A DNA stretch of 64,000 nucleotides from Acidimicrobiia bacterium (lineage in GTDB: Bacteria; Actinomycetota; Acidimicrobiia; Spongiisociales; ZC4RG35). Position 1 is the stretch's first letter; each line of letters opens with the position of its first letter. Below, in pieces: positions 21,583 through 39,734 of the stretch. The stretch is from assembly GCA_965204615.1 (NCBI GenBank), contig OZ242000.1, forward strand, positions 1,281,803 to 1,345,802, read 5' to 3'. The notes under the pieces are model-generated. The model ran no database searches. It was not told the DNA's origin and was given only the letters and a program-made list of their open reading frames with translations. A program made the translations under genes and the position numbers.

Positions 21583-22874
21583 AGCCCCCGGTTTTGTTGG
21601 TCGATGTGCCGCTGATAAACCTCCAGGTCTATCACCGTTTCTGTGTACAGATCAGCTCCGATACCCGAAGCGATAGCCAAAGCCGCTGCCGATGGCGGAC
21701 GGTTGGGTTTGGGTTTGCAGGGTGGTTTGGTAGTGAACTCGGCCAGGACCACGTTCTCCAAAGCAGCGGTGTGTTCGGGTAGCCGTACCACCCGTCCCAT
21801 ACCGCGGGGTGCCTGCTGGTGGGTAGCGACCAGCCGGCCACTGGCCGAGAACATGCTGATAGTGGGGTCACCCAGCCGCCAACGGACGGTGACCTGGGTT
21901 CCTATCACCCCTGGTGGCACCGAGTATCGGTTACCGCGTACCGATACCAGCCCGTTGGAAGCCACCCTGCGCTCCAGGACCCCTTCCGCCGGGTAAGCCA
22001 CCAGGGGCAGCTCGAGGAGAGGCTCGGTCTCGGCCAGTTCCCCCACGGTGCTCTCGCCTCGTGGACGGGCGTCGCCCACCGTTTGGCAGAAGCTGTCCAG
22101 GCTGTGCTGTGCCTGGGCGATGCTGGTCACCGCCGCGGTGCGCCACCACCGCTGAGAGACATAGTGAATGGCCTTTTCCACCACGCCTTTCCGTTGAGGA
22201 CGGCGCGGTGGGCACGGATCGACAACCACCCCGTAATGCTTGGCTACCCCAACGAACGACGGCTGGATACGACCGCCGGCGGCGACCACGGTCGCCATCC
22301 GATCCACCCGCCACCGCCGCGGGGTGCCCCCCAGGCGTCTCAACACCTGGTCGAGACCCTCCACCAAATGGGGTTGGTCCTGGCGGGACGTGATCCACGC
22401 CCGAAAAGCGCCCGAGTGCGACAACACACCCACCAACACATGAGCCGTGGCTCCCCACGGGGCATCACGCAGCTCCACCCAATCCCATTGACACTCCTCA
22501 CCCGGCGGATGATCGATGATCGCAGTGGCACGGCCCCTGGTGCCCGCACAAGCGCCACACAACGGCCGCAGGCCCCGGTTGCGGATCTTCCGCACGAACG
22601 TCGGGTAACTCTGCGAATAGCCCAAAGCCACCACCTCGTCGAACAGCGCCGACCCCCACACATGCGGATCATCAGACAACCGCTGCCGCACATACGCCTC
22701 GAACTCATCAAACAAATCCGCCCCCGCCCGGGCACGCTGACCGGGCACCCGATCGCCCGACAGATACGCTCGCACGGTACGGCGGCTCTTACCAACATGA
22801 CGGGCAATAGCCGAGATCGACCACCCCCGCCTCCTCAAAGCATGAACTTCCACGCACTCCTCCAGTACCAACAT
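21579..22874 (-). CDS. istA: IS21-family transposase IstA
   Basis: 431 aa; N-terminal HTH (GWSISAIARHVGKSRRTVRAYL), DDE integrase core. Confidence 0.9.
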   Translation of the reverse strand: MLVLEECVEVHALRRRGWSISAIARHVGKSRRTVRAYLSGDRVPGQRARAGADLFDEFEAYVRQRLSDDPHVWGSALFDEVVALGYSQSYPTFVRKIRNRGLRPLCGACAGTRGRATAIIDHPPGEECQWDWVELRDAPWGATAHVLVGVLSHSGAFRAWITSRQDQPHLVEGLDQVLRRLGGTPRRWRVDRMATVVAAGGRIQPSFVGVAKHYGVVVDPCPPRRPQRKGVVEKAIHYVSQRWWRTAAVTSIAQAQHSLDSFCQTVGDARPRGESTVGELAETEPLLELPLVAYPAEGVLERRVASNGLVSVRGNRYSVPPGVIGTQVTVRWRLGDPTISMFSASGRLVATHQQAPRGMGRVVRLPEHTAALENVVLAEFTTKPPCKPKPNRPPSAAALAIASGIGADLYTETVIDLEVYQRHIDQQNRGL

Positions 22875-23999
22875 AAGGGGCAGGGCTCCTCTCCACAGCT
22901 AGGAAATGTGACAATCCCTTAGCTTGGAGAGAGCCCTACCCAACAACGGGCATTTACCCCCAGGAGGTGGGAACTTTCAGTGATCGAGACTGGGAACTTT
23001 CAGTGATCGCCAACAGCGTGAAGAGGTTCTGCGCATCGGTGTACGTCACTGCAGAGGCTCCAAGCGGCAGGTACTCGGACCAACGGGCCAGCGAGACAAA
23101 GGTGTCCACATAGGGCTGGTCCGTGAACTTGGCAGAGCCGTCAATCAGGGCCGTTCGACCTGCTTCACCATCCCAATAGTTGGGGCCAATGTTCTGGAAC
23201 CCCATGGTGGCGGCTTCCCACAAATCGGCGGTTCCCATACCGAGCGGTACGTAGGAGCCTTCCGCGGCTATCGCTTCCAAGACTTCGAAGAACTCATCTT
23301 CCGTCTGAGGTACCGCAAGACCAAGCTCGTCGAACGCTTCGACATTGTAGATAAAGCCGTGTATGACCGAGGCCATAGGTACACAGAAAGGTGTTGAGCC
23401 ATCATCAGTGATCCAGGCGCTTTGAGCCACTGAGCTGAAGGTCTCGATACCGGGTAGATCATTCAGCGGGGCCAAGTGGCCCTGGTCGAAGAGTCCCAGT
23501 GAGGCATCAAAGGGACGACATGTTATCAGGTCACCGGCAGTGCCTCCCTCCAGCCGACTGGCCAGAGCGGCGTTGTATTCAGTTGGAGGAGAGGGATTGA
23601 ATTCCACGTCGATATTGGGGAACTCCGCTTCGAATGCCGGGATGATCTGGTCATTCCAAATAGCCAAGTCATCATTTCTCCAGCTTTCGATGGTGATGGT
23701 CACCGGCTCATCCGCCGCGGGAGCGGCAGTCGTGGCCGGAGCAGCGGTCGTGGCCGGAGCAGCGGTCGTGGCGGGAGCGGCGGTCGTGGCCGGAGCAGCT
23801 TCTTCTCCGCTGTCTCCACATGCTGCAGCCAACAGCATTATTCCTATCAAAACAGCAATCCGCCTGCCAATTTTCAGCATATGCTCTTCTCCTTTTACTC
23901 TTGACCCCAAGGGGGTCGCTTACATGTGCGAAGCTGGAACTGCTGCGTCAAAGCCAATGCACACACCAAGTTCCCAACTTCTCCGCGGGAGTGGCCACA

Positions 24000-25133
24000 T
24001 TAGGCGACCCCCAACTCCTCGCTGATCACCACACCGGCTGCACCGAGCAATACGATCTCGTCGCCCAGGCTCGTCCACCGGACCTCCACCAACTCAGCAA
24101 TTTGGTCGAGACAACGGCTGCGGAGGCTCTCCGCAGCCATCTCGCAAAATGAGTCTCCCAACTGTTCCTTAGGCCCCGCCACCAATATCAAGTGCAAATC
24201 AAGCACCGAGGCGATGGCGGCCATCACCGCTCCGAACCGCTGTGCGGCTGTTTGCAGCACCTCCTTGCGACCAGTCCCTCCCTTTACTTGTCTCCGGATA
24301 TTCGGTATGGACACAAAGGTCTCCAGGCATCCTCGGTGACCGCAACCACAGATGTGACCTGTTTCGTCCACAACCAGATGACCTATCTCCCCTGCTGAGG
24401 CGCTGTCCCCTGTCAGCAGCCGATGGTCTACGATCAACCCGGCGCCGACCCCCGAACCAATCCTTACCACTACCAGGCTGTCACGGTCATGGTTGCCTCG
24501 GGTGTACTCCGCGATGGCGGCGGCCTGGGCATCGTTACTTACGTAGGTGGGGTGACCCACGGCCTCTTCTATGGCATCCGCCAGTGCCACATCGCGCCAT
24601 TCGAAGTTCGAAGCCTCCACTATCTCACGCCCGTGGACGACCAACCCCGGAGTGCCCACACCTATCCCCAGTATCGGTGCAGTGGTACTGTCGACAGCCT
24701 GTGTGACAATGTCCTTCACCATTGTGATGGCCCGATCACCGATGCAGTGACCCGTCTCGATCACAACCTCCTGAACGATCTCTGCCGCAAGATTCACAAC
24801 CGCGGCTCGCATGGTTGCCGGTTCGCTCAAGTCGACAGCAACAACATTTCGGGCATCTGAGCGGATCCGCAACATAGTTGGTGGTTTTCCGACCCTGTTG
24901 TTTATACGGCGGGGACCAACTTCCTCGACCAAACCCATGTCCACAAGTTGGGCCACGAGCCCGGAAACCGTCGCAGGCGTCAGACCGGAAAGGCGCGCCA
25001 CTTCGGCACAACTCATCTGGTCTCCCGAAAAGAAGTGCTGGAGAACCAGCCGTAGGTTGTTCGAACGGGTGTCACCCTTTCCCGCCTTGGTGGAGACCCT
25101 CAAAGGCAAATCGCTCCTCTGCCGTACTCTCAT
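24000..25133 (-). CDS. ROK-family transcriptional regulator (NagC/Mlc-type) with N-terminal winged HTH
   Basis: 377 aa; HTH (MSCAEVARLSGLTPATVSGLVAQLVDMGLV) plus ROK sugar-binding domain with CGCGHRGCLE zinc motif; immediately upstream of the nag-type transporter genes. Confidence 0.8.
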   Translation of the reverse strand: MRVRQRSDLPLRVSTKAGKGDTRSNNLRLVLQHFFSGDQMSCAEVARLSGLTPATVSGLVAQLVDMGLVEEVGPRRINNRVGKPPTMLRIRSDARNVVAVDLSEPATMRAAVVNLAAEIVQEVVIETGHCIGDRAITMVKDIVTQAVDSTTAPILGIGVGTPGLVVHGREIVEASNFEWRDVALADAIEEAVGHPTYVSNDAQAAAIAEYTRGNHDRDSLVVVRIGSGVGAGLIVDHRLLTGDSASAGEIGHLVVDETGHICGCGHRGCLETFVSIPNIRRQVKGGTGRKEVLQTAAQRFGAVMAAIASVLDLHLILVAGPKEQLGDSFCEMAAESLRSRCLDQIAELVEVRWTSLGDEIVLLGAAGVVISEELGVA

Positions 25134-25392
25134 TGGGATTAATATGTTAACTAGCTAAACTTATTGTGTCAAATGCTTCCCGGGGTCCAAATGCTTCCCG
25201 GGTCTCTGGCAAGAAGGGCCAACCTGCTGAAATTTGCTCTTGATGCACATTCCGGTCCAGACAATTCCACTAAGCATGCATCTTGTGTCGAGCATCCGTA
25301 GCTTGGGCCCACCGATCTACCCAGCCCCATTGGTACTCTTTCGTTGAAGAAACCCCGGTCAGATTTCCTGGCTGCGCCGATCGAGGGAACCC
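25134..25392. promoter_or_regulatory. divergent intergenic control region (ROK regulator <-> SDR operon) with AT-rich segment and 15-bp direct repeat
   Basis: AT-rich GGATTAATATGTTAACTAGCTAAACTTATTG at 25134-25168; CAAATGCTTCCCGGG repeated at 25170-25184 and 25188-25202. Confidence 0.3.
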
Positions 25393-26187
25393 ATGCCGCT
25401 GGACTTTCCTGACATCTCTAAGAACCTGTTCGACCTGAGTGGCTATTGCAGCGTGGTGACCGGATCCGGCCAGGGCATCGGCTTGTCCCTCTCGAAGGGC
25501 CTGGCGCATGCGGGAAGCGACCTGGTGCTGGTGGACATGAACGCCGAGACGCTGGAGAGCGCCGCGCAGGAAATCGGCGAGCTAGGCCGCGGGGTTTCGA
25601 CCGTGCATGCGGATGTGACCGCTGAAGACACGCCGGAGCGAATCGTCCGGGCCGCGTTGGCCCTGGGTGGGCGGATCGACGTGCTGGTGAACAACGCCGG
25701 GATCATGGGGTACTCGGACATGCTGGACGTCACCGACGAGCAGTGGGACCGCATGTACGGGATCAACCTGCGCGCACCCATGCGGATCATGCGGGCAGTG
25801 CTCCAGGAGATGAGCCGGGCGGGCCGGGGAAGCGTGATCAACATCGGTAGTTCCTGGTCGTCCCGGGCGTCGATCTTCAACCAGGACGGGGGCGGGGTGG
25901 ACTACTGCTCGGCCAAGGCGGCGTTGCAGGCTCTCAGCCGGGCGGCCGCACATGATGTGGCGCCCTACGGTGTGCGGGTGAACGCCATCGCCCCGGGAGC
26001 GGTGGACACGCCCATGCACGCCCACCATCGCGAGTACCTCTTCTCCTATGAGAAGTACATCCCGATCGGGCGGATGCAGGTGGCAGACGACCTGGTGGGG
26101 CCGGTGATCTTCCTGGCCTCGGACGCAGGCGCCTATGTGACGGGCCAGACCATCCATGTCAACGGCGGGATCCTGATGGTCGACTGA
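25393..26187 (+). CDS. SDR-family oxidoreductase
   Basis: TGSGQGIGLS cofactor motif, NNAG, YCSAKAAL catalytic Y-x3-K; GAGGGAA RBS. Confidence 0.85.
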   Translation: MPLDFPDISKNLFDLSGYCSVVTGSGQGIGLSLSKGLAHAGSDLVLVDMNAETLESAAQEIGELGRGVSTVHADVTAEDTPERIVRAALALGGRIDVLVNNAGIMGYSDMLDVTDEQWDRMYGINLRAPMRIMRAVLQEMSRAGRGSVINIGSSWSSRASIFNQDGGGVDYCSAKAALQALSRAAAHDVAPYGVRVNAIAPGAVDTPMHAHHREYLFSYEKYIPIGRMQVADDLVGPVIFLASDAGAYVTGQTIHVNGGILMVD

Positions 26188-26229
26188 TAATCTCTGCGGT
26201 TGGTACCCGTTGCCGACCAGGAGGTTCGA

Positions 26230-27060
26230 ATGTTCACCCGCGACCAGGTGTGGGAGAGGCTGAGGAAGACTCTTTCCGGGGGGAGGCCCGTCATAGGAGC
26301 GGGTGCGGGGACCGGGATCTCGGCCAAGTTCGCCGAGCGGGGCGGCGCCGATCTGATCCTCATCTACAACTCGGGCCGCTACCGGATGGGCGGTCATGGG
26401 TCGAATGCGGGACTGCTGCCGATCGGGGACGCCAACGCCATCGTGATGGAGATGGGAGAGCGGGAGGTGTTGCCGGTGGTGGAGAACACGCCGGTGATCG
26501 CCGGGGTGAACGGGACCGACCCCACCCGGGTGATGGACCACTTCCTGGGACGGGTTGAGGCCATGGGGTTTTCGGGGGTCATCAACTTCCCCTCGGTGGG
26601 GTACATCGACGGGCGGTGGCGCCAGAGCCTGGAGGCGACCGGGTTCGGCTACTACCGGGAGGCGGAGATGATCCGAAAGGCCTCGGAGCGGGGACTGTTC
26701 ACCCTTGCCTACTGCTATGACCCGAAGGAGGCGCCGATGATGGCCGAGGCGGGAGTGGACGTGATGGTCGCCCACCTGGGCCTGACCACCGGCGGCAGCA
26801 TCGGAGCGGACGATTCCTTCACCACCTCGCTCGACGCCTGCGTGGAACAGGCCATCGAGACCCGGGAGTTGTCGGAGGCGGTGAACCCCGACATCCTGGT
26901 GGTCCTGCACGGCGGTCCCCTGGAGGGTCCCGGGGAGGTCGATGAGGTGATGCGAGCCTCCGGATGCCCGGGTTTCATCGGCGCCAGCACCATGGAGCGC
27001 CTGCCCACCGAGGTGGCCATCGAGAACACCGTGCGGGGCTTCAAGGACCTGTCTGTCTAG
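26230..27060 (+). CDS. Tm-1-like C-terminal-domain homologue (TIM-barrel, phosphoenolpyruvate-hydrolase-like family protein)
   Basis: ATG 26230 with AGGAGG RBS; characteristic GAGAGTGISAKFAERGGADLILIYNSGRYRMGG and HLGLTTGG segments of this family. Confidence 0.7.
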   Translation: MFTRDQVWERLRKTLSGGRPVIGAGAGTGISAKFAERGGADLILIYNSGRYRMGGHGSNAGLLPIGDANAIVMEMGEREVLPVVENTPVIAGVNGTDPTRVMDHFLGRVEAMGFSGVINFPSVGYIDGRWRQSLEATGFGYYREAEMIRKASERGLFTLAYCYDPKEAPMMAEAGVDVMVAHLGLTTGGSIGADDSFTTSLDACVEQAIETRELSEAVNPDILVVLHGGPLEGPGEVDEVMRASGCPGFIGASTMERLPTEVAIENTVRGFKDLSV

Positions 27061-27111
27061 AAGAGTGTCCTCCATCCACCGGCGGCTGGCGGATCCCGGA
27101 CCCGGTCGGCG

Positions 27112-28320
27112 ATGAGCAGGGTGGTGGTGGCGGGCGCCTTCGACACGAAGGCCGAACCGCTGGGGCTGTTGGTGGAGATGCTCACCCGGATGGGTGCGCC
27201 TCCCATAACCATCGACACCGGGGTCTTCGGCGGCGATCACGGTTGTGACCACCCGGCCGAGGCGGTGGCCGAGGCCGGCGGGTATTTGCTGGCGGAACTG
27301 GCGTCGGCCGGCCGGGCACGGGCGGTCTCGGCCATGGCGCGGGGAGCTTCGGTCATACTCCGGGGACTGGTCGACGCCGGGCAGGTGGGGGCCCTGGTGT
27401 GTCTGGGAGGGTCCAACGCGGCGGTGCTCTTCACCCACCTGGCGCCGGTGGTGCCTCTGGGAGTCCCCAAGATCCTGATGGCCACGTCGGTGGCCGGGGA
27501 GACCCGGCCGCTGGTGGACGGCCGGGACGTGACCATGATCTATCCGATCGTGGACATCGAGGGAGACAGCACCATCCTCCGCTCGATGATCGGGCGCCTG
27601 GCGCGGGTGGCGGTGGCGTTGCTGGGCGCCGGACCGCTTGACCCGGAAGGCTCTGCCGCCTCGGTGGGCGTGACCATGTACGGGTTGACCAACCCCTGCG
27701 TCACCCACTGCCGGTCGCTGCTGTCTTCCGCAGGCCTCCAATCGCTGGTCTTCCACGCCAACGGGACGGGTGGACGTTCCTTCGAGTCCTTCATCTCGCA
27801 GGGTCTTGTGTCGTCGGTCCTGGACGTCACCATCTCCGAGATCACCGATGAGTTGTTCGGAGGCCTGTGGCCGGCCGGGCCGGAGCGGCTGCGGACGGCT
27901 TCGCGGGTGGGAGTCCCCCAGGTGGTGGCGCCCGGGGCGATCGACATGATATGCGTGGGTCCCAGGGACAGCCTGCCCAGAGAGTTCGGAGACCGCACCG
28001 TGGAGGTCCACAACGAGTTGGTGACCCTGGTGCGGACCACAGCCGATGAGAACTACCGGATGGGCCGGGTGGTGGCCGAGCGCCTGGGCGTCCCCCGGGC
28101 AAGGGCGTCGGTGCTGGTGCCCCTGAAGGGCTTTTCCGGCCTGGACGTCGAAGGTGGTCCGTTCCACGACCCCGAGGCGGTGGATGCCTTCCTGGAGGGG
28201 ATCCGATCCTGTGTGGCGCGGTCGGTGTCGGTGGTGGAGGTGGACCACCACATCAACGACCGCGGGTTTGCCGAGGCGCTGGTGGAGACGCTCAGTTCGG
28301 CGATCGGCGTCCGTAGGTAG
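27112..28320 (+). CDS. UPF0261-family protein (Tm-1 N-terminal-domain homologue)
   Basis: 402 aa; pattern VVVAGAFDTKAEPLGLL… typical of UPF0261; immediately follows the TIM-barrel partner. Confidence 0.7.
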   Translation: MSRVVVAGAFDTKAEPLGLLVEMLTRMGAPPITIDTGVFGGDHGCDHPAEAVAEAGGYLLAELASAGRARAVSAMARGASVILRGLVDAGQVGALVCLGGSNAAVLFTHLAPVVPLGVPKILMATSVAGETRPLVDGRDVTMIYPIVDIEGDSTILRSMIGRLARVAVALLGAGPLDPEGSAASVGVTMYGLTNPCVTHCRSLLSSAGLQSLVFHANGTGGRSFESFISQGLVSSVLDVTISEITDELFGGLWPAGPERLRTASRVGVPQVVAPGAIDMICVGPRDSLPREFGDRTVEVHNELVTLVRTTADENYRMGRVVAERLGVPRARASVLVPLKGFSGLDVEGGPFHDPEAVDAFLEGIRSCVARSVSVVEVDHHINDRGFAEALVETLSSAIGVRR

Positions 28321-28330
28321 GAGACGGAAC

Positions 28331-30301
28331 ATGGCCTTCGAGAACCTGTTGCGGCCGGGCTACATCAACGGTATGTACATGCGGAACCGCCTGATCGTGG
28401 GGCCCATGGAGAAGTCCCTCGCCAACCCGGACGGCAGTCTCAACCAGAGATACATCGCCTATGCTCGCCGCCGGGCCATGGGTGGTGCGGCGCTCATCCA
28501 ACTGGAGTCCACCTACGTGTCTCCCGAGGGCCGGGGGAACCCCTACCAGGTGGGATGCCACGGAGACCATGTGATACCGGCCCTGGCGGAGATGGCCGAC
28601 GAGATCCACCGTCATGGCGCCAAGCTGGCCATGGAGCTGCATCACGGGGGACGGCAGGCGTCGGTCACCGCTCACCATCGGCGCCCGATCGCGCCGTCGG
28701 CGATCGGCTCGACGTTCATGGACCGTGGATCGGTCCCCCGGGAGATGACCGTGGCGGACATCGAGCGGGTGATCGGCGACTTCGGGCGGGCGGCCGAGCG
28801 GTGCCTTCGCGCCGGGGTGGACATGATCCACCTCCATGGCGCGCACGGGTATCTGCTGGGGCAATTCCTCTCTCCTCGCTCCAATCAGCGGACCGACCGG
28901 TACGGAGGGCCGCTCGAGAACCGGGCCCGGTTCGGGTTGGAGGTGCTGGCGGCGGTGCGGGAGGTGGTGGGCGAGGACTACCCGATCGGCTATCGCATCT
29001 CGGCGTCTGAGTACGTGGAGGGCGGGCTGGAGGTCGAGGAGTCGGCTGCCTTCTGTGCGATGCTGGCCGACGCCGGTATCGATCTGGTGGACGTGGCGGG
29101 TGGCACGTATGAGTCGATGTCGAGGATCTTCCAGGGACCGGAGGCGCCCAGGGGCGGGTTCGTTGCCGAGGCCGGGGTGATCCGCCGGGCGGTGGGAGAC
29201 CGGGTGCCGGTGAGCGTGGCGCAGCGGATGAACGATCCGGTGTTCGCCGACCGGGTCATGGAGCGGGAGGGATTCGAGTACGTCACCCTGGCTCGCGCCT
29301 TCCACGCCGACCCCGACTATGTGCTGCGGCTAACCGAGGACCGGGCCCGCGAGATTGTGCCGTGCATCAGTTGCAATAGCTGTGTCAACCTGACGGTGGC
29401 CCGGACGCCCGCCGGCTGTGCGGCCAATCCGGTCAGTGTTCACGAACTGTCGCGGGGCGCCGTCGAGAAGTCTGCGGCGCCGATGCGGGCGATGGTGATC
29501 GGCGGTGGGCCGGCGGGGATGCATGCCGCTCGCTTCCTGGGATTGGGGGGTCACGATGTGACGCTGCACGAGCGGGGCCGCCGCCTGGGAGGACAACTCC
29601 GCTACCTGCGCCGGGCCTTGCCGGAGTACGGGAGGCTGGTCGATTGGCTGGCGCTCGAGTTGGAGAAGGCGGGGGTGGCGGTGGAGTTGGGGCGAGAGAT
29701 CGGGTTTGGCGATATCCGGGAGGCGGACCCCGATGTGGTGGTGGTGGCCACCGGCGCGCATGGTGGGAGTCTCATGGCGGCCGAGTGTGAGCGGACCGTT
29801 CCGGTGTTCGACGTCTTCTCGGCATTGGAACGCCCTCCCGGGGAATGGGAGGAGACGGTGGCCGTGTTAGGCGGGGACCATGCGGCGTGCGTGGTGGCGC
29901 TGCACCTTCGCCGGTTGGGAGTGGAGGTCCACATCGTCGATGCCGGCGCCTCCGTGGCAACTGACGGGGAGTTCAACGGGTTGCTGGTGGAAATGGAACT
30001 GGACGCCGATCCGGGAGTGGTGGTCCATCGGGAGACCACCGCCGAGACGATCAGGGGCGACCGGGTGGTGATCGAGACACCGGGCAGGAGGGGCTCGCTG
30101 GAGGTTGGCGCGGTTGTCCTGGGAGGGCGGGCGTCCGACAACCGGCTGGCGGATGAACTGTTGGGTTCCGACCTCCGGGCGGCCGTCTATCCCATCGGCG
30201 ACGCGGTGCGTGTCGGAGATCTGTACAAGGCGGGCCAGGATGCAGCCGAGGTGGCCGAGAAGGTGAATCTGATGGCGCCGGCCGCGAAAGCCGGGGAGTG
30301 A
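28331..30301 (+). CDS. Old-Yellow-Enzyme-type NADH:flavin oxidoreductase fused to FAD/NAD(P)-binding domain with 4Fe-4S motif (2,4-dienoyl-CoA-reductase/TMADH-like)
   Basis: ATG 28331 (GGAGACGG RBS); OYE TIM-barrel motifs (HGAHGYLLGQFLSPRSNQRTDRYGG), CxxCxxC…C cluster (CISCNSCVN), Rossmann VIGGGPAGMHAA. Confidence 0.8.
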   Translation: MAFENLLRPGYINGMYMRNRLIVGPMEKSLANPDGSLNQRYIAYARRRAMGGAALIQLESTYVSPEGRGNPYQVGCHGDHVIPALAEMADEIHRHGAKLAMELHHGGRQASVTAHHRRPIAPSAIGSTFMDRGSVPREMTVADIERVIGDFGRAAERCLRAGVDMIHLHGAHGYLLGQFLSPRSNQRTDRYGGPLENRARFGLEVLAAVREVVGEDYPIGYRISASEYVEGGLEVEESAAFCAMLADAGIDLVDVAGGTYESMSRIFQGPEAPRGGFVAEAGVIRRAVGDRVPVSVAQRMNDPVFADRVMEREGFEYVTLARAFHADPDYVLRLTEDRAREIVPCISCNSCVNLTVARTPAGCAANPVSVHELSRGAVEKSAAPMRAMVIGGGPAGMHAARFLGLGGHDVTLHERGRRLGGQLRYLRRALPEYGRLVDWLALELEKAGVAVELGREIGFGDIREADPDVVVVATGAHGGSLMAAECERTVPVFDVFSALERPPGEWEETVAVLGGDHAACVVALHLRRLGVEVHIVDAGASVATDGEFNGLLVEMELDADPGVVVHRETTAETIRGDRVVIETPGRRGSLEVGAVVLGGRASDNRLADELLGSDLRAAVYPIGDAVRVGDLYKAGQDAAEVAEKVNLMAPAAKAGE

Positions 30302-30556
30302 CGCCGACCCATCGGTCCAATGAGAGTGCCGGATAGGTTGATCAAGGATTCGGTTGGCCTATATATCCGGTTTTGTGGACCAAGCCGGGCTCAGACCAAG
30401 CGCTGACCCTTAGGCTCCACCGAACACCGCACCGGCCCGGTTGCTCTACCCGAAGGATCCTTGTTCGACCGCTCCGGGGAGGAGTCCGCAGGTGTTCCCG
30501 TGTCATGGGCACCTCTTCACTGCGTCACGGTTCGTTGCGTCCGGTCTTCTGGGCCG

Positions 30557-31954
30557 TTATGGGTGCTTGGCGATGGTTTCCGCTGCGTGGACGCCACTGG
30601 CCAGTGCGCCGTTTACCGAGGGAACCCGCGTGTAGTCGCCTGCCAGGAAGAGGTTGTTTATGCTTTGGCCGAGTTGGCTGGGGATGTCCGCTACCGCGGT
30701 GAACATCCCGGGAGGTCCCATGCACACAGCCTGTTTCCACCTGTAGACCCGGGAGAAGAGACCCTCGCCGTAGGTGGGGAGCCTGGAACCGGGAGGAGGG
30801 TGCCGATGGGCGTCCTCAAGCACCTGTCGCTCTATCTGTTCATCGTCCAGCGGGATCAGCTCCGCCGCACGGTCCCGCCCGACGAGCAGATCAAGCGTGC
30901 TTTTGCCCCGAGGAGCGGAAAACGGCAGGCTAACGGATCGGTCCAGCAAGAGAGGAGTGTCATCCTCGGGGTACAACGCGCCGGACCAGCCGACCGGGAG
31001 CGGGGGATGGTCAAGGCCAATCACGACCCGGCACCCTGACGAGTAGGTAACGTTGCCGAGTGTCCGCCGAATCTCCTCGGGCAGGTCAGGAATGATCTCC
31101 GGCACCTCTGTGGCAGGGACCGCACAGATAACCGCGTCCGCCTCGATAAAGCCCTCATCAACAATCACCCCGGTCACAACGCCGTCTCGGACAACCACCC
31201 TCCTTACCGGTGTAGAGACGCGTATGGCATCCGAACAAGCATCGGCCAACGCTTCGGACAGGGCGGCAGCGCCCTTCTCCGGCACCCAGATCCGGTCGGC
31301 GTTCACCAGCATCTCCAACAGGTAGGTCCGCATGTACGCCTGAGCGGAGAACTCGACATGGCCCATGGTCATCTCCAAGAAACCCTCAAGGATCACCCTC
31401 ACCGACTCGGGCACTCCCAATGTTCGAAGGTAATCCCCGAAACTCTGGTCACCGTCAAGTTCGGCCAGCCGACTGTCACCGGCAAAACTAAGAAAGTCTC
31501 TTTGGCGTAACATCTCCCTGAACAGCTTCCCCACGGGTCTGATAGCTCTGGGCGACAGCATTCCCAGCCCCCACGCCGCCGGCAGATTCCTCACCAGATT
31601 CCCAACCGATAGCCCAGGTGTGGTAGTAACCCAACGGCCGTTTCTGTACCAGCCGAGCCTCATCACCGAACGGATCAACGGTAACCCCAACTCCTCGCAC
31701 AATCTGAAAGCAACGTCGTAGGAAGAACAGAAAAAATCGGCACCTGTATCCAGGAAGAACCCCTCCACCCGGTCACCGACCATGCGACCGCCCACCCGAC
31801 CCGTCGACTCCAAGAGAACTGCATCCAAACCATGACCCCGGAGGGTGTAGGCCGCGCTCAAACCGGCCGCGCCTCCCCCCACTATCACAACCCGCCCCAC
31901 ATCCTCGCCATCTCCCCGGACCCTCAACGGAAAACGATCACCTACACCAGCCAT
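30557..31954 (-). CDS. FAD-dependent oxidoreductase (amine-oxidase/protoporphyrinogen-oxidase-like fold)
   Basis: VVIVGGGAAGLSAAYTL dinucleotide-binding motif near N-terminus; true start may be the internal GTG ~18 codons downstream. Confidence 0.75.
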   Translation of the reverse strand: MAGVGDRFPLRVRGDGEDVGRVVIVGGGAAGLSAAYTLRGHGLDAVLLESTGRVGGRMVGDRVEGFFLDTGADFFCSSYDVAFRLCEELGLPLIRSVMRLGWYRNGRWVTTTPGLSVGNLVRNLPAAWGLGMLSPRAIRPVGKLFREMLRQRDFLSFAGDSRLAELDGDQSFGDYLRTLGVPESVRVILEGFLEMTMGHVEFSAQAYMRTYLLEMLVNADRIWVPEKGAAALSEALADACSDAIRVSTPVRRVVVRDGVVTGVIVDEGFIEADAVICAVPATEVPEIIPDLPEEIRRTLGNVTYSSGCRVVIGLDHPPLPVGWSGALYPEDDTPLLLDRSVSLPFSAPRGKSTLDLLVGRDRAAELIPLDDEQIERQVLEDAHRHPPPGSRLPTYGEGLFSRVYRWKQAVCMGPPGMFTAVADIPSQLGQSINNLFLAGDYTRVPSVNGALASGVHAAETIAKHP

Positions 31955-33505
31955 CAGAGCACCTCCCCCAAACTCACGGACAACGTGGTCCTCCCCGGAA
32001 CCGATACATCACCGGTCAATCTCAACAGCATCCCCGAGACACCCAACCTCACACCGAACGGGAACTGGCTGACACCGACCGGCCAACAGACACCGCTTCC
32101 CCGATAGCAGCCAAACCGGCCAAGGCCCCTCCCACGAAACGAAAGTCAACCCACAAAACAAACCATGCGTGTTGAACGGGGGGTGTGGCAGTGCCGATGG
32201 GGATGGCTCCAACTGAACCTGCCCCTGCCCCCTGCGGGGTGTGGTGGCTTTGTGTGGTGAGTGCCTCCCCACCTGTTGCCGGCCCGGTGTTGTCGCTTGA
32301 TAGGAGCGTGACCTAGAACCGCTTGTGCGGTGTTGGTTGTTTCTACGCATGGATGCGCCCCACCGAGGCTTCTGCCGCTCCCCAACAAAGCCCCTATTCC
32401 CCATCAACACCCCGCTCGCTGCTCTTCCACAAATCACATTCCGCTTGGCCCATGGTCATCCCACATAAGGACTTGACATCCACCTGAAATCTCCAGATAA
32501 CCACGATCCGGTCTACTCGCCGGAAATTCTTTCACGGGCCTGGCGCCACTCCTCCTCGGTTGGGGGTATGAAACAGAGACCGTCCGGGTCGCAGTCACTG
32601 CCCTCGTCGTCGGCGTCCGGCGGGTCTCCGTCGTCGGAGGTGGATCAACAGGTTCTTGCGGTGGCGGCGGGCCGGGGTCCAGGCTGCCCGCGTTGGGATC
32701 AGCGTCCGGCGGGTCTCCGTCGTCGGGGGGACGATGCACCTGCTGAGAGTATATGTTCCTCTATTGAATACGTATTCATTCAGGCTCTCGGCGTATTACC
32801 AATATATAAAGCCTTTACCCGGTGATCCTCGTGAGGTCTGTCTGTCGTACCCACTGTTCAGGGGGTTTCCGGGTGCACTTCAGTGCAAAACGTGTGGTCG
32901 AGATACTCCAACGTCAAAACTGCCTTCTTTGATCTGAAGTCGGCCATGGCAGCTACGGCATCCGAGGGGGACATGTGATCCTGGCTGAACTGATCCCTTT
33001 GTTGGCTCTTGCTCATCTCCTGTCCCTTCTGGCATCACGCCTTCCTATACCCGTCTCTGCTCCGACATCAGGTAAATGTTGGCTTGCGGGTCTGTGGTTG
33101 TCGGGTTGATGAGCATTTCAGGCGGCGCTCCCGTGGACAGCAGCGGGGAGCTGCGTCCAGGCGTAAGCTACTGCTGGTGGGGCGGTGGCTCTTAGGTCGG
33201 TGACGAGCCTGCAGCCCGCTGGGGGTCGGAGTGACAAGGTGTTTCCTCCGACCCATGGTCGAATCCCGGGCTGGACATCGGTACCCTCTCAGCCTCCGAG
33301 AGCCGATCTCGGCCCTTCTCCATTGCGGCCACGACTTGTGCAGGCGTGGACCTGCCCTGCTGATCCTATATCCGGTACCGGAATGGAAGAGAGTGGCTCT
33401 GAACTGGGATAAGTGGCGCAGATAGAGTGGTGGGAAAGGAGCCCGATTTGGGGATTAATCCCCCGACTTTCGCGAGAAAAGGTAACTCTCGCTTCTACTT
33501 GGTCA

Positions 33506-35140
33506 TCAGGAGGACCGGGCTTGGGCGGCCAGGAGTTTGCGGTTCAGCTTGCCGGTTGAAGTCTTGGGCAGGTTCTCCACGTACTCGACCATGCGGGGGT
33601 ACTTGTAGGCGGCCAGTTGGGTCTTGACCTGGGCCTGGAGTTCCGCGGTCAGATCATCTCCCGGCCGGTGACCATCGGCGAGCACCACCATCGCTTTGAC
33701 CACATGGCCCCTGATCCGATCGGGAGCGGGGATGACCGCTACCTCTGCGACTGCGGCGTGGCGCACCAGGGACTCCTCGACCTCGGCAGGTCCGATGCGA
33801 TAGCCGGCACTGGCGATCATGTCGTCGTCGCGGCCCAGGAAGCGGATGTAGCCGTTGGCGTCCAGGGTGGCCTGGTCGCCGGTCATGATCCAACCGGCGC
33901 GGCGCATGCCCTCGGTTGCCGCCGGGTTGCCCCAGTACTCGAGCATCTGGGTGGGATCGCCGGGGCGCACCGCGATCTCGCCGATCTCGCCCGGGCTGAC
34001 TTCCTCCCCACTCTCGTCGAGCAGGGCCACATCCCGGCCCGGGTAGGGCAGTCCCATCCATCCGGGCCGGCCGGGCCACAACGCCTCGCATCCACCCACC
34101 AGATGGTTCACCTCGGTGAGCCCGTAGAACTCGTTGATGACGGCTCCCAGGTCCCGCTCGCTCCACCGGTGCAACTCGTCGGCCACCGACTCTCCGCCGC
34201 TGGCTATGACCCGGAGATCGAGATCGAACCGGGGACCGGGGTCGGGTACCTGCGCCATAACCTTGAGGGCCGTGGGCGTCAGGAAGGCATGGGTGACGCC
34301 GTTCCGACCGATCACCTCGAAGGCCCGTTCGGCGGAGAAGCGCTCCTCGTCGGCCACCACCGGGCGGCCGAAGACGAGGGCGGGCAGCAGAATGTCGAGG
34401 AGTCCTCCCACCCACGCCCAGTCGGACGGGGTGTAGAACACGGTGGACTCGTCGAACTCCACGTTGAAGAAGAGTTTGAAGGTGAGGAGGTACCCCTCCA
34501 GGATGCGGTGCGCATGGAGAGCCCCCTTGGGATGGCCCGTGCTGCCCGAGGTGTACAACAGCAGAGCCGGATCCTCCGACGACGTGTCGACCGGGTCGAA
34601 GTCTGCCGGGTAGCCGTCGGCTTCGGACAGCGACCGCTCGCCCTCTCCGGGCTGTCCCGAGATCACCACCGTACCCAGAGCCGGCAGATCGTCGCGCACC
34701 GATCGGATCGGATCTGCGTAGGCCTCCCCCACCACGATGACACTGGTCGCCGAGTCGGACAGGATGTGCCGGTAGGAGTCGGGACCGTACAGGATCGACA
34801 TGGGTAGGGCCACGGCGCCGACCGAATAGACCGCCAGATGGAGGGCTGCCAACTCAGCGCCCTGGTGCATCACCAGCGAGACCCGGTCTCCGGGCTGGAC
34901 TCCCAACGAGACCAGGAAGTTGGCGTAACGCTTCGCCAGCCTGATCAGGCGCCAGTAGGACCAGGTGTCCCGGCGCCCATCGGAGTGCTCAACATAGATG
35001 GCGACCCGGCCACGGGCGTCGCTCCAGCGGTCGAAAACCTCCGAGGCCATGTTCATCCGTTCGGGAATGTCCCATTGGAAGTCTCTCACCAGCGCCCGGT
35101 AGCCGCCGAAACCGAGCAGGTCCGAATCTGCAATTCGCAT
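33506..35140 (-). CDS. AMP-dependent synthetase/ligase (acyl-CoA synthetase family)
   Basis: 544 aa; AMP-binding motifs LLYTSGSTGHPKG, YGLTE, TGD…GY, and C-terminal PKTSTGKLNR. Confidence 0.85.
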   Translation of the reverse strand: MRIADSDLLGFGGYRALVRDFQWDIPERMNMASEVFDRWSDARGRVAIYVEHSDGRRDTWSYWRLIRLAKRYANFLVSLGVQPGDRVSLVMHQGAELAALHLAVYSVGAVALPMSILYGPDSYRHILSDSATSVIVVGEAYADPIRSVRDDLPALGTVVISGQPGEGERSLSEADGYPADFDPVDTSSEDPALLLYTSGSTGHPKGALHAHRILEGYLLTFKLFFNVEFDESTVFYTPSDWAWVGGLLDILLPALVFGRPVVADEERFSAERAFEVIGRNGVTHAFLTPTALKVMAQVPDPGPRFDLDLRVIASGGESVADELHRWSERDLGAVINEFYGLTEVNHLVGGCEALWPGRPGWMGLPYPGRDVALLDESGEEVSPGEIGEIAVRPGDPTQMLEYWGNPAATEGMRRAGWIMTGDQATLDANGYIRFLGRDDDMIASAGYRIGPAEVEESLVRHAAVAEVAVIPAPDRIRGHVVKAMVVLADGHRPGDDLTAELQAQVKTQLAAYKYPRMVEYVENLPKTSTGKLNRKLLAAQARSS

Positions 35141-35305
35141 TAGGGCGATTCTAGAGAACCGCCGGATAGCTCCTCACCAGGCCGAAGACGCGAAAACGAT
35201 CACTAAATCGCGAAATCCCGCCAAAGAACTTCGTCCGAAGGGCCCACCCCCGCCGCCACCACCGGTTGTGGGAGCGCGGGTGGGCCGGAGAGGCGTTTCG
35301 GGTCA
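35129..35305. repeat. copy 1 of a ~175-bp duplicated segment (promoter/leader plus first 5 codons of the acyl-CoA synthetase); copy 2 at 38479-38651
   Basis: Direct comparison by eye: the two copies align over ~175 bp with a handful of substitutions and two short indels; both contain TCGCGAAAACGATCACTAA(A/T)TCGCGAA and a GGCCCACCC…GGGTGGGCC hairpin. Confidence 0.8.
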
Positions 35306-35500
35306 CTCTCCCGGGTGGGGTGATATTCGAGATCTTCGCCGGTGCGCTGGCGCCTTTCGGGGTCGGCGCGGTTCAATACCTGATCCTATGCATGTGCTAC
35401 CAGCAGAATCTGAAGACTGTGGCGGCCATCACCGGCCTGGTCCCTCACGACGCCTCCACCATCAGCCGTACGGAAGGTCCGACCCGCATGGCCACGGTTG

Positions 35501-37528
35501 TTAACCGGTGTCCGGGACGACCTTGAACACGTTGTCGGAAATCTCGTCTTCTATGGGAGTGTTGCGTCGAATTATGTCGGCCAGAGCGGTGGTGCGAACT
35601 TCCTGCAGAAGGTCGGGGTTGGCCAGGAAGTACTGGTCATTCTCGAACCAGAAGCGATCTCCCTCGCGTAGGCGTTGGAACTGGTCCAAGATGATCGCGC
35701 GGAGAGTGGGTCCGACGGCCGCTCCAGGAACATGATCTTCCGCCAGTGCCCCCGCCCAGAGGTCCAATCTGTCTATCCTGCCGTACGCCAAAGCCAGGGC
35801 CTGCCCGACCCGCGACCGGGACGACACATCAGCAAGAGAGGCAAGCGGCGCCAGACCGTAAGCGCCGCGTACAGCATTGAAATCACCCAGTCCGTGATCC
35901 CTACTGCGCTGGATGTTCAGGGCAGCCAGATCAAACTGTGGACCGCCCGGTCCCCTCAGCAGCATGTTACGAACTTCGTCTATCACCATTGCATCCACTT
36001 CCTGAGCCTCTTGAGCGGCCAGTCCCCTCAGGAACGCGGAAACACCGCGCTCGGTAACGAAGGAAGGATTGAAGAATGCATCGGCAAGGCTGAGGGCCTC
36101 CGTGTCTCCGCCGCCACTGCGGATCAGGAGGTTGGGAGACAGCATGGTGTGTCCGACTCGAAAGGCCGCGGTTGAGAATTCGTTGGCGATGGTCGGATCA
36201 ACCCCCGGGTCGTATCCCGTATAGGGGTCTATGGCGTGGGGACCCAACAGCAGCGGCAGGAATTCGTTGAAGGTTATGGCTTGGATGTGAGCGCCGACCA
36301 TTTTGCGAGCCCGTTGGTAGATCTCTTCTCCGCTCAGTCCGGGAATCTGTTCGGCGAGGGCATCAGCGACGCGGTTGTGCTCTCGTACGAACAGGGTGTG
36401 CAAAGAGGTGAGCCCGACTTGCTCGTTGACCCGCACATCACCTGCAAGGAACAGATCTTCCCGATCCCTGCCTCCTTCGTTCTCCAGGTTGGCTTCGTTG
36501 TAGAGGAGGAACCGGCCCTGTTGTGATGTCTTCAGTTTTCCGGTGCCGTCGCGGGTACGGAGAGAGTGTGCCCGATGCCAATCCGAGCCGTACACTTGTG
36601 AACCGTCGATGAAGGCCGTGACAGTGTTCATCTGTCTCCTGGGATTGTCCGGACCGGTCCCGGTTGCAGGATCGAATGCAGAACGATCAAAACCGATCGC
36701 GCCCTCACCCGTTCCGTCGGGATCGAAAGCCGGATCCCATTGAGGAACTGCAATGGGCAGGGGCTCGGCGACGTTGGTGGGAGTGAGGCTGATGTCGTGG
36801 TCCAGGAATTGTCCCCACTGCCAGAACATGTCACTGAGCCGGAGGGAATTGGGCACGGGTCGGCTCTGGGCAAACACAGAGTTGCTCACCGCCCGGGGAT
36901 TCGGTCCCGAGGTTGGAGGGGTGGATACGCCGTCCGAATAGGAGGTCGGACCCTTACGCAGTAGACCTGTGCCCGCCATGCCCCAAGTGGGGTTGGATGT
37001 ATTGTTTCCCCGCCCGTCAATCGATCGAGGCTCCCAGGAATCCGGATACTCTTTCAGACTCAATGAGAGGGTCTCACCCGGTTGCCACTCCAAATCCACG
37101 CCAAACCATATGTAGTGTCGCGAATCCACCCTCCCGTCCACGAGATTGAGGACCTGATCGGGGAGGTGGAACCCCAGGCGCCCGAAGTTGTCCGGGAGAC
37201 CGGGTAAGAAGTAAATGCTCAGGTTCTTGGACTCCGGATTCGCCGTTTCCACCAGGACCACACCCGTCACGGTGTAGGACGCACCTTTCCATAGCAACTC
37301 CGTGTTGGAGAGGCCTCCGGCGCGTTGCTCGAGATACCCGATGAAACCTCCGTCGTCTCCCACTGTCAAAGCGGTTTCCCACACCGCATTCTCTTGAGGC
37401 GGTGAGTCACCTCCCGGCTGGGTTGGAGATGTGACTTCGACGGCCTGGCCTACGGACCCATAGAGAATGGACGTTGCCACGAGGCAAATAGCGACCACGA
37501 GCAGTCTCCCGGGCGAGAACCCCCTCAT
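35501..37528 (-). CDS. secreted animal-type heme peroxidase (peroxidase-cyclooxygenase superfamily) with ~170-aa N-terminal accessory domain
   Basis: Distal-His motif FWQWGQFLDHD, proximal-His region LFVREHNR, RSRDHG and RSIDGRGNNTSNPTWG motifs; signal peptide from ATG 37528 (MRGFSPGRLLVVAICLVATSILYG); ATG overlaps upstream stop (ATGA). Confidence 0.8.
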   Translation of the reverse strand: MRGFSPGRLLVVAICLVATSILYGSVGQAVEVTSPTQPGGDSPPQENAVWETALTVGDDGGFIGYLEQRAGGLSNTELLWKGASYTVTGVVLVETANPESKNLSIYFLPGLPDNFGRLGFHLPDQVLNLVDGRVDSRHYIWFGVDLEWQPGETLSLSLKEYPDSWEPRSIDGRGNNTSNPTWGMAGTGLLRKGPTSYSDGVSTPPTSGPNPRAVSNSVFAQSRPVPNSLRLSDMFWQWGQFLDHDISLTPTNVAEPLPIAVPQWDPAFDPDGTGEGAIGFDRSAFDPATGTGPDNPRRQMNTVTAFIDGSQVYGSDWHRAHSLRTRDGTGKLKTSQQGRFLLYNEANLENEGGRDREDLFLAGDVRVNEQVGLTSLHTLFVREHNRVADALAEQIPGLSGEEIYQRARKMVGAHIQAITFNEFLPLLLGPHAIDPYTGYDPGVDPTIANEFSTAAFRVGHTMLSPNLLIRSGGGDTEALSLADAFFNPSFVTERGVSAFLRGLAAQEAQEVDAMVIDEVRNMLLRGPGGPQFDLAALNIQRSRDHGLGDFNAVRGAYGLAPLASLADVSSRSRVGQALALAYGRIDRLDLWAGALAEDHVPGAAVGPTLRAIILDQFQRLREGDRFWFENDQYFLANPDLLQEVRTTALADIIRRNTPIEDEISDNVFKVVPDTG

Positions 37529-37911
37529 TTCGCAGACGAACCCGTACGCATACCAGAGTCGCAGAAAAATGTCTCTTGGCAATACCCGGCACTATCACCT
37601 TCGCAGAGGCCGTCGTAACAGGCCGCCTCGGCGTAGCGCCCCTGGCCGGCGACGCCACCGGTCCCCTCCGGCACACCGGTCAGCGTGACCTCAACCGCCG
37701 CGGCGTCATTCGATCCATGGTTCACCGCCTCGGTGGTGCAGGCGCCCCGGTTTCCGGTCGCCACTACTCGAAAGTCATACCCACCCACCCTTTCATCCTC
37801 CTCAATCCTCACAGCAAGGCTATGGGCCGGCGGTCGATGAAATCGCAGCCGGGCGTGGGCAGTGGGGCTGGAGGCCGCCGACGTTATGACGGTGGCGGCA
37901 ACCAGGAACAC
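37525..37911 (-). CDS. small secreted protein (128 aa) with C-terminal Cys cluster, translationally coupled to the heme peroxidase
   Basis: GTG start; hydrophobic N-terminus (MFLVAATVITSAASSPTAHA); C-terminus ACYDGLCEGDSAGYCQETFFCDSGMRTGSSAK; stop TGA overlaps peroxidase ATG. Confidence 0.45.
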   Translation of the reverse strand: MFLVAATVITSAASSPTAHARLRFHRPPAHSLAVRIEEDERVGGYDFRVVATGNRGACTTEAVNHGSNDAAAVEVTLTGVPEGTGGVAGQGRYAEAACYDGLCEGDSAGYCQETFFCDSGMRTGSSAK

Positions 37912-38478
37912 GAGCGAAACAACCTTGACATGCGCCTGCCGGGTCGTAGTCCCCGCCCAGGGGGGAGGGGGTACCCAACCACCTCAACCCCCCAAAACGA
38001 CTTGCAAGATAGAAACACCCCCCGTCGCCCGCGCCCGATAGGAACGGCCCGAAACCCGAGGGTGAAGAGCGCCCGTTCCAATGTTCTAGTGCGAATAATA
38101 ATCATTCTCAGGACAGCGTAACACAGACTCCATAGAACCAAGAACCTATTAACCCCATCTGTAATAGATCACTCTGCCCATCACCCCGCCAGTCGTAGAA
38201 AAACTGGCTGCCGGCATGGGCAAATCCCCCGGGAAGGTCAAACCCCGACGGTCCCCGCTCCCCTGCCCTACGCAACTCCCCAAAGGTGCAACCCTACCCC
38301 GCACCAACGATCAGAACCCATGCCGGCGGTCCCCAAGTGACCTCGTCCCATACTCCCCGACCTCCAAGAGAAGAAAACAGCGGAGACAGCCCAGACAGCA
38401 AAACTCTCCCCACTCCCACTCAACCGTTGGAGGAATGACAGTTCGGTCGTCGTAAGTAGAAGTCTTCGCAAGGAGACC

Positions 38479-38651
38479 ATCTGCAATTCGCGTTAGGGCG
38501 ACTCTAGAGAACCGCCGAGTAGCTCCCCACCAGGCTGAAGACGCGAAAACGATCACTAATTCGCGAACATCTCGGCAAAGAACTTCGCCCGACGGGCCCA
38601 CCCCCACCGGTTGTGGGAGCGCGGGTGGGCCGGGTGGCCGGAGAGGCGTTC
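38479..38651. repeat. copy 2 of the ~175-bp duplicated regulatory segment; ancestral start codon mutated ATG->ACG
   Basis: See copy 1; lies ~180 nt downstream of the FGE gene and ~570 nt upstream of the small-protein/peroxidase operon on the same strand. Confidence 0.8.
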
Positions 38652-38831
38652 TCCACCGAAGATATGACATCTCGGCCCGGGTGACGTCGGGGCGGGCCGG
38701 GTTGTGTTCGGCTTTTTCAATGTGTATCGGGCCGGTGACAGAATCAACCTGGTATCAAGGGTTTTCTTCGCGGATTGCTCGGACATGGCTCGGCAGGGGG
38801 CGGGACATTCTTGGGGCGCACTTGATTGCTC

Positions 38832-39734
38832 CTAGGGCTTGGAGCGGGAAATGCAGCGGAAGCCGATGTGGGTGGTGGAGGTGTCGACGGTCTGCGACTG
38901 GCGGGCGGCGGGCCGGTATCTGAAGCAGTACTGGATGGTGCAGAGGTGCGAACCGCCCTTGATCACCCGGGTGGGCGCCGGGTCTTCGCCGGGGGTCTGC
39001 GGGGCACAGCACGGGGATGCCGGAGGTCCGGCCGAAGGGAGCCGGTAGGGGTCGGAGGTCCACTCCCACACGTTGCCGGCCATGTCGTGGAGGCCGTGAC
39101 CGTTGGGAGGGAAGGCGCCGACCGGGCTGGTGTAGGCCCAGCGGTCCAGTTTGGTGTTCTCGTAGGGGAACCGGCCCTGCCAGGTGTTGGCCAGGGGGGC
39201 GGTCTCCTGCGGATCGTCATCGCCCCAGGTGAACTCGGCGCCCTCCAGGCCTCCCCGGGAGGCGTACTCCCATTCGGCTTCGGCGGGTAGCTCCATGCCG
39301 GCCCAGCGTGCGTAGCTCTCCGCGTCCCGGTAGGCGACGTGAACCACCGGATGCTCCTCGAGACCCTCCAGGGAGGATCCCGGTCCGCGGGGATGGCGCC
39401 AGTCGGCGCCCGGGGTCCATGCCCACCAGCGCCAGAACTCCCCCGGGTTCACCGGACCGGGGGTCATCGTGAAGACCAGCGATCCCGGAACCAGGTCCTC
39501 GGGTCGGGCGTCGGGGTAGGAAGCGGCGTCGGGAGGCCGCTCCGCCACGGTCACATGGCCGGTGGCCTCGACGAACCGCCGGAACTGGCGGTTGGTGACC
39601 GGGTGAACATCGATCGCGAACGGCCCGACGGTGACCGTCCGGGCCGGGCTCTCTTCGGGATAGTGGTGATCCGACCCCATCGAGAACCCACCGCCCGGGA
39701 GCCACACCTGGGAGTGGTCGGGTGAAGTTATCAT
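38832..39734 (-). CDS. formylglycine-generating enzyme (FGE/SUMF1 family)
   Basis: 300 aa; near-colinear with the mycobacterial FGE pattern (LPGGGFSMGS, VTNRQFRRFVEATGH, GNVWEWT, KGGSHLC, YCFRYRPAAR). Confidence 0.85.
   Translation of the reverse strand: MITSPDHSQVWLPGGGFSMGSDHHYPEESPARTVTVGPFAIDVHPVTNRQFRRFVEATGHVTVAERPPDAASYPDARPEDLVPGSLVFTMTPGPVNPGEFWRWWAWTPGADWRHPRGPGSSLEGLEEHPVVHVAYRDAESYARWAGMELPAEAEWEYASRGGLEGAEFTWGDDDPQETAPLANTWQGRFPYENTKLDRWAYTSPVGAFPPNGHGLHDMAGNVWEWTSDPYRLPSAGPPASPCCAPQTPGEDPAPTRVIKGGSHLCTIQYCFRYRPAARQSQTVDTSTTHIGFRCISRSKP

Follow-up and report, generated by a model that had tools for sequence, protein, structure and literature searches.

An ORF-poor island in a sponge-associated Acidimicrobiia genome probably holds the truncated, frameshifted remnant of an SLH-domain gene and its orphaned upstream region

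In the window, the 64,000-nucleotide stretch of DNA that we analyzed, a 1.5-kb island poor in open reading frames (ORFs) separates two genes of the minus strand. The center of this island is very probably a 5'-truncated and frameshifted pseudogene of an SLH-domain protein, together with the upstream region that the gene has left behind, while the rest consists of gene flanks and spacer. The pseudogene was missed by family searches because only a low-complexity C-terminal tail of it survives. Near-identical metagenome contigs (L049, L050, and L062) served as the comparators that resolved the island.

The island (31955-33505) is bordered on one side by a FAD gene (30557-31954, minus strand) and on the other by an AMP-binding acyl-CoA synthetase gene (33506-35140, minus strand), and Pfam agrees with both assignments (amine-oxidase-type FAD oxidoreductase and AMP-binding, respectively). 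An earlier note on this DNA had described the interval as ORF-poor and strongly asymmetric between strands, and had proposed a decayed gene or mobile-element scar, a locus for non-coding RNA, or an unrecognized small-gene system. The description was accurate. The longest ORF within the island is 142 amino acids (aa), and the codon-position GC periodicity seen in both neighboring genes collapses inside the gap. The strand skews change sign between 31955-32170 (GC skew −0.39, AT skew +0.52) and 32171-32330 (+0.17 and −0.36). The features that we assign to the island are collected in Table 1. As far as can be judged from sequence, they in all likelihood amount to a non-functional residue and ordinary gene flanks, with no new element among them.

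Table 1. Features of the island and its gene flanks, in window coordinates (−, minus strand;., no strand)
Feature	Position	Strand	Remarks
FAD amine-oxidase gene 5' flank (putative promoter and leader), 205 nt	31955..32159	−	C/A-rich on the plus strand
Second lineage- or strain-specific spacer, 237 nt	32160..32396	.	homology only to L049 and L062
SLH gene 3' flank, 116 nt	32397..32512	−	within a 335-nt match to L055 (6799-7132)
SLH gene 3' remnant	32513..32730	−	Pro/Asp-rich repeats, conserved C-terminal motif, TAG stop 32513-32515
24-bp direct repeat, two copies	32614-32637 and 32703-32726 (span 32614..32726)	−	exact, far beyond chance
1-nt deletion, frame shifted	32641..32642 (about 32641)	−	CCACCC to CCACC relative to L049
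801-bp deletion junction	32730..32731	−	L049 5789-6589 absent from the window
SLH upstream module (putative promoter and leader), orphaned, including the AT-rich island	32736..32929	−	88.7% identity to L055
Invariant core TATTCAATAGAGGAACATATACT of the upstream module, 23 nt	32748..32770	−	TATACT, a −10-like hexamer, inside
Perfect 14-bp palindrome TGAATACGTATTCA	32765..32778	.	overlaps the conserved core
52-aa orphan ORF (MSKSQQRDQF...HPETP)	32858..33016	−	called gene in public assemblies
Lineage- or strain-specific spacer, 502 nt	32930..33431	.	found only in the window, L049, and L050
AMP-binding gene 3' flank, 74 nt	33432..33505	−	92% identity to L056; homology ends at 33432

The window and L049, a 12.3-kb contig, are 97-98% identical over 8 kb. 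L049 and L050 have a common gene order of An_peroxidase, AMP-binding, a 52-aa ORF, a 326-aa gene, FAD oxidase, Oxidored_FMN, and UPF0261. The synteny comparison with relatives that had been proposed as a check shows that L049 and L050 carry an SLH gene where the window has its gap; in L049, it is called as a gene of 326 aa and is flanked by the 52-aa ORF and the FAD gene. Its product has a hydrophobic N-terminus after basic residues, which resembles a signal peptide as judged by eye. It contains three SLH stretches (Pfam SLH, E = 1.7e-11) and three 30-aa Pro/Asp-rich tandem repeats with a period of 90 nt, and its C-terminus reads ...CDPDGLCFIPLTEEEWRQARERIFGE. A C-terminal motif, C-x2-DGLCFIPLTEEEWR, is conserved in the family, and no Pfam model covers it. 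The family is large (more than 1250 homologues), and eight close homologues align over their full length. Some members, from Acidimicrobiaceae or Acidimicrobiia metagenome-assembled genomes, carry the NCBI name 'S-layer homology domain-containing protein' (e.g., P0030). The SLH reading frame is unbroken in L049, in L062, which represents a third strain, and in L055, whose copy is either paralogous or orthologous and has neighbors unrelated to those of the window, that is, another genomic context. Metagenome scans with the core motif and with the SLH protein gave no match, and a literature search for SLH proteins in sponge Acidimicrobiia found nothing. Among the homologues, P0026 is a variant with an in-frame loss associated with the repeats.

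The remnant in the window was recognized by its match to the intact gene. The L049 protein matches 32516-32617 with 94% identity (tblastn, E = 3.8e-13), and the remnant as a whole aligns to L049 6590-6808 with a nucleotide identity of 97.7%. In blastn, the window matches L049 1523-5788 and 6590-10334 (97.9% and 97.0%, respectively) with a clean break of 801 bp between the two segments. The deleted stretch is 267 codons long and opens exactly at an in-frame ATG (L049 5789), which corresponds to the start called for the L055 gene. With it went the start codon, the putative signal peptide, all three SLH domains, and the first of the Pro/Asp repeats. Six-frame translations of 31900-33560 matched no Pfam family, SLH included, the SLH-encoding part being deleted, and Pfam scans of the single ORFs were likewise empty inside the gap. 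At the breakpoints, we saw no microhomology that could explain the deletion mechanism.

The surviving part is also out of frame. The single missing base at about 32641 gives a 101-aa ORF beginning 'PPPTTETRR...', and adding one base at this position on the minus strand gives a 75-aa ORF that ends in CDPDGLCFIPPTEEEWRQARERISGE. A word-indexed search with this frameshift-corrected reconstruction found no homologue because the low-complexity tail is too short; the reconstruction itself later proved right. The sole in-frame start left for the remnant is the GTG at 32739; translation from it would run out of frame at about 32641. Compared with the eight intact homologues, the remnant has leucine to proline and phenylalanine to serine replacements at the otherwise invariant L311 and F324, which are too few for a dN/dS estimate. 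The window copy no longer has an intact ORF, and both its start codon and its N-terminal export signal are gone. Programmed frameshifting was rejected as an explanation for the remnant because the start codon and all domains have been lost.

The locus resembles bacterial pseudogenes that arise by 5' truncation and frameshift, as in gene decay in host-associated bacteria. An intact orthologue occupies the equivalent position in near-identical strains (L049, with L050 and L062 as corroboration). The copy bears disabling lesions, namely the 801-bp 5' deletion that includes the start codon and the 1-nt frameshift, together with the substitutions at otherwise invariant residues. Nothing notable sets the window locus apart from such pseudogenes, and the upstream region kept without its gene is a minor curiosity. 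The likeness to SLH cell-envelope proteins (PF00395) lies in the intact L049 gene at the equivalent position, with its three SLH stretches, and in the 94% identity of the window remnant to the last 34 residues of the L049 protein. The window copy differs from them in having no SLH domains, signal peptide, or start codon and in being frameshifted, which makes it a remnant and not a functional member of the family. The suggestion of a decayed gene or scar is therefore borne out for the island center, since 32513-32730 appears to be what is left of an SLH gene that is intact in near-identical contigs. The earlier note had also stated that a frameshifted known gene, if found, would explain the island as a plain pseudogene, and this is essentially what we found. 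A pseudogene of which only a low-complexity tail remains can escape blastx-style family searches, and synteny with near-identical strains resolved the case here.

The direct repeat belongs to the same remnant. The two exact copies reported earlier are real, although the second coordinate given for them (~32697) was about 6 nt off. Their spacing is 89 nt, and at 94% identity the repeat can be lengthened to 31 nt. On the minus strand, the copies encode DDGDPPDAD in differing frames, and the unit of the SLH tandem repeat encodes PPDDGDPPDAD. The direct repeat thus represents two surviving units of the 90-nt (30-aa) coding tandem repeat of the SLH gene. The 1-nt deletion at about 32641 accounts for the spacing of 89 nt in the window against 90 nt in L049.

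These observations suggest an order of events. The ancestor would have had a gene for a secreted cell-envelope protein of 326-339 aa on the minus strand between the AMP-binding and FAD genes, as is kept in L049 and L050. In the strain of the window, a deletion of 801 bp would have taken the sequence from the start codon through to the second repeat. The remaining 218 nt would later have lost one base, causing the frameshift, and gained the substitutions at the two invariant residues. In this uncultured lineage of sponge-associated actinobacteria, the locus may record the loss of a cell-surface protein at strain level.

The region upstream of the lost gene seems to have survived the deletion. 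A module of 194 nt is 88.7% identical to the DNA directly upstream of the L055 SLH gene. It includes the AT-rich island at 32745-32815 that had been pointed out before and that indeed has a GC content of 37% against 64% for the window. The AT-rich island belongs to this orphaned upstream region of the SLH gene. The core TATTCAATAGAGGAACATATACT of the module is invariant in the window, L049, L055, and L056 except for two positions in L056. It occurs once in the window, and in a set of 62 loci all its occurrences lie upstream of SLH orthologues. In front of the ATG that serves as the start in L049 and L055, the TATACT hexamer lies at a distance of ~17 nt and AGGTG at 6 nt. We infer that the core represents the SLH promoter, which is followed by a Shine-Dalgarno site. 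The orphaned promoter may still be firing into the remnant.

Two further sequence signals had been noticed in this part of the island. The palindrome TGAATACGTATTCA is present at 32765-32778, but it is not beyond chance (seven perfect 14-bp palindromes in the window against 6.5 expected from shuffles) and its left arm is not conserved in L055 and L056. We therefore rejected it as a standalone operator. The letters of the candidate promoter TTGACA-17-GATAAC are also present on the plus strand (32473-32478 and 32496-32501), but GATAAC lacks the T at position 6 that is usual in a −10 element, and a promoter scan gave no sites. A sigma-70-type promoter at 32473-32501 was rejected; no plus-strand gene lies downstream, and the site falls within the 3' flank of the SLH remnant.

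The remaining parts of the island are flanks and spacers. The 335-nt match to L055 has an identity of 91.6% and reaches 115 nt beyond the SLH stop codon. L061 matches the 5' flank of the FAD gene at 92.6% identity, and the homology begins at window position 32159. In L061, another gene lies upstream of the FAD gene, and its C-terminus resembles a putative aminoacyl-tRNA synthetase by eye. The 3' flank of the AMP-binding gene, which L056 matches along with the 3' end of the gene, has two small hairpins, one of them the palindrome GGGGATTAATCCCC (33450-33463), and its fold is unexceptional (z = −0.8). The two spacers total about 740 nt, and their only comparators are contigs that are 97-98% identical. 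The spacer at 32930-33431 includes the beginning of the 52-aa ORF (its 5' half) as well as a hairpin with a 9-bp stem (33226-33258). It had no match in other loci by blastn and tblastx, and six-frame Pfam and NCBIfam searches of it were negative. The spacer at 32160-32396 had no match in the remaining loci.

We considered whether the 52-aa ORF (33016 to 32858, minus strand) could encode a real small protein, perhaps as a young gene confined to the lineage, which would make the island partly a small-gene locus. The small ORF reported earlier does exist, and it overlaps a second ORF of 52 aa that is read in a different frame (32880-33038, minus strand), but neither conservation beyond near-identical strains nor the proposed small-gene system found support. 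The exact 52-aa product and both flanking proteins are in a public collection, all from one 3.33-Mb contig, and a variant with one residue changed (P0004) is on L049 and L050. Gene callers predicted the ORF in three independent assemblies, its GC content by codon position (0.52/0.43/0.67) is like that of real genes nearby, and a Shine-Dalgarno-like GGGACAGGAG is just upstream. Against L049, the only amino acid change is conservative (D to E). The ORF differs at one of 159 nt, where about four differences are expected at the local divergence, a conservation excess that is not significant. On the other side, an exhaustive HMMER search of 1.84 billion cluster representatives found no homologue beyond near-identical strains, and two matches were discarded as repeat-inflated chance matches. 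Pfam assigned no family, the sole match being below threshold. The ORF also crosses a homology breakpoint at 32929, with 87 nt of spacer sequence at its 5' end and 72 nt of the SLH upstream module at its 3' end. In the counterpart DNA of L055, a 1-nt indel alters the frame and no relationship is seen in the 5' half; the frame is thus not kept past near-identical strains, as that of a conserved small protein would be. The overlapping second ORF indicates that such ORFs arise easily here. A genuine small protein gene is unlikely on this evidence, and the 52-aa ORF is probably a fortuitous ORF picked up by gene callers.

A broader reading would take the ~190-nt module as an undescribed cis-regulatory element, the 52-aa ORF as a very young de novo gene, or both. 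We regard this reading as quite unlikely. If it were true, the module could serve cell-envelope genes of sponge-associated Acidimicrobiia as their specific operator-promoter or leader, and it might still drive transcription toward the FAD oxidase gene in the strain of the window.

The idea of a non-coding RNA fared worse. It would make part of the island a structured RNA, or the 194-nt SLH upstream module a cis-regulatory leader RNA. A sliding fold scan gave z of about −3.1 at 33140-33259, where a perfect 9-bp stem is present, and the module is nearly as conserved (88.7%) as coding sequence (91.6%) between two unrelated genomic contexts. However, the z value is alike on both strands, is not significant over about 78 windows, and vanishes in a 201-nt context (−1.0 and −1.5). 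The contigs that have the structured segment are all 98% identical, which leaves no covariation to test. Rfam 15 gave no match at the gathering score in the whole window, and a permissive search of the gap returned only a chance snoRNA match (E = 4.1, 13.8 bits against a gathering score of 49). ARAGORN found no tRNA or tmRNA genes. Of the module, L056 has kept no more than the 23-nt core, a pattern more in line with a promoter than with a folded leader. A structured RNA in the island is very unlikely, and the earlier proposal of a non-coding RNA locus is unsupported.

It is still less probable, to a degree that we regard as remote, that the deletion and the frameshift are assembly or consensus artifacts in an organism that really has an intact SLH gene: the 1-nt deletion does lie in a short homopolymer context (CCACCC), as do several further 1-nt differences from L049 in G or C runs, and the SLH gene has internal DNA repeats with a repeat-associated in-frame loss known from P0026, but the breakpoints at L049 5789 and 6589 have no common repeat on which an assembly could collapse, lesions of three independent kinds (deletion, frameshift, and two substitutions at invariant residues) coincide, and the flanks are otherwise collinear at 97-98% identity. 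We prefer to annotate the locus as an SLH-domain pseudogene, truncated and frameshifted, whose upstream region has been orphaned, and not as a candidate RNA or small-gene locus.

The wider context of this pseudogene is variable among related genomes. The suggestion of a mobile-element scar was not borne out; six-frame Pfam and NCBIfam searches of the gap gave no signal of a transposase or integrase, blastn against plasmids and phages gave no match, and no inverted repeats were found at the island. The synteny of the FAD protein in GTDB genomes covers 48 loci from many phyla at up to 73% identity, none of which shares the gap sequence. In L051-L054, whose AMP-binding protein is about 90% identical, the nucleotide homology ends exactly at the stop codon of that gene and resumes near window position 13644, and the segment 35286-38840 with the peroxidase gene is missing. 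L056 has the AMP-binding, SLH, and Oxidored_FMN/UPF0261 genes in the same order with different cargo between them. The loss of homology in L051-L054 and the differing cargo in L056 place the island, as read from these comparisons, on the border of a region of about 20 kb that is hypervariable among related Acidimicrobiia-like sponge-associated genomes. The 1.5-kb island differs from known genomic plasticity zones in having no integrase, transposase, tRNA, or flanking repeats in or beside it. It is like them in that the interval from AMP-binding to Oxidored_FMN/UPF0261 holds differing cargo in L049, L056, and L051-L054, and in that gene cassettes recur with their own flanks in different contexts (L055 and L061). 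The locus would thus mark the edge of a hypervariable region where cassettes with their own flanks are reshuffled.

The surface-layer homology (SLH) gene, intact (326 aa) in L049, a contig 97-98% identical to the window, and present there as a remnant, moves as a cassette, taking with it about 194 nt of upstream and about 115 nt of downstream DNA. In L055, the cassette lies in an unrelated context, and a 162-aa Phage_integrase fragment is found about 2 kb downstream of it. The gene is also structurally unstable. In P0026, another natural variant of it, in-frame deletions between internal DNA repeats have removed an SLH unit and a Pro/Asp repeat. The C-terminal motif of the protein, C-x2-DGLCFIPLTEEEWR-x-A-x3-IFG(E/D), is near-invariant in SLH homologues with just 63-91% overall identity. 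No Pfam model describes this motif, and its sole match was weak (SUZ, E = 0.29).

Locations of the SLH cassette, its C-terminal motif and a natural variant
Feature	Description	Location	Length
SLH cassette		L055 6001-7017 + flanks; L049 5828-6808	
SLH C-terminal motif		L049 6700-6805; P0024-P0031 C-termini; window 32516-32590 (-)	
P0026	natural SLH-gene variant	3187-bp contig	247 aa

The spacers are indel-prone between strains. Ahead of the FAD amine-oxidase gene, about 45 nt (window 32047-32091) are missing from the near-identical strain L062. In a short GACA tandem repeat (window 32843-32846), L049 has one unit fewer, whereas the window and L055 retain the unit.

On a larger scale, we compared the window with the more distant relatives L051-L054, which have 84-87% nucleotide identity to it across shared genes. 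These relatives are missing two stretches beside the AMP-binding acyl-CoA synthetase gene, about 20 kb on its downstream side (window ~13650-33505) and 3.5 kb on its upstream side (window 35286-38840; An_peroxidase), and the AMP-binding stop codon is the exact breakpoint of homology. The same interval carries different cargo in L056, namely a hybrid histidine kinase, a xanthine/uracil permease, and a serpin. Downstream of the AMP-binding stop codon, at a distance of 43 nt (window 33450-33463), comes a second palindrome that is perfect over 14 bp, GGGGATTAATCCCC; a 7-bp hairpin (GCGAGAG...CTCTCGC-like) precedes it. The palindrome may be a terminator without a U-tail, but its fold is unexceptional (z = -0.8).

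The FAD amine-oxidase protein (window 30557-31954, -) has 53-73% identity to proteins of metagenome-assembled genomes (MAGs) from many phyla (loci L001-L048), with matches among Dehalococcoidia, Rhodothermales, Nitrospirales, Gammaproteobacteria, Gemmatimonadota, Latescibacterota, and Verrucomicrobiae. Many of the MAGs come, judged by their names, from sponge or marine-host projects, a distribution that suggests the gene has spread horizontally inside a common habitat. At the 3′ end of the gene (window ~30568), 7 nt (ACCTAAT) are absent compared with L049, and the protein therefore ends in ...ETIAKHP (465 aa) in the window versus ...ETIANLIAPITAQKTGRNEP (478 aa) in L049. This changed end, together with the calling of the gene as two ORFs (310 and 168 aa) in L061, hints that the FAD gene too is decaying or variable in some strains.
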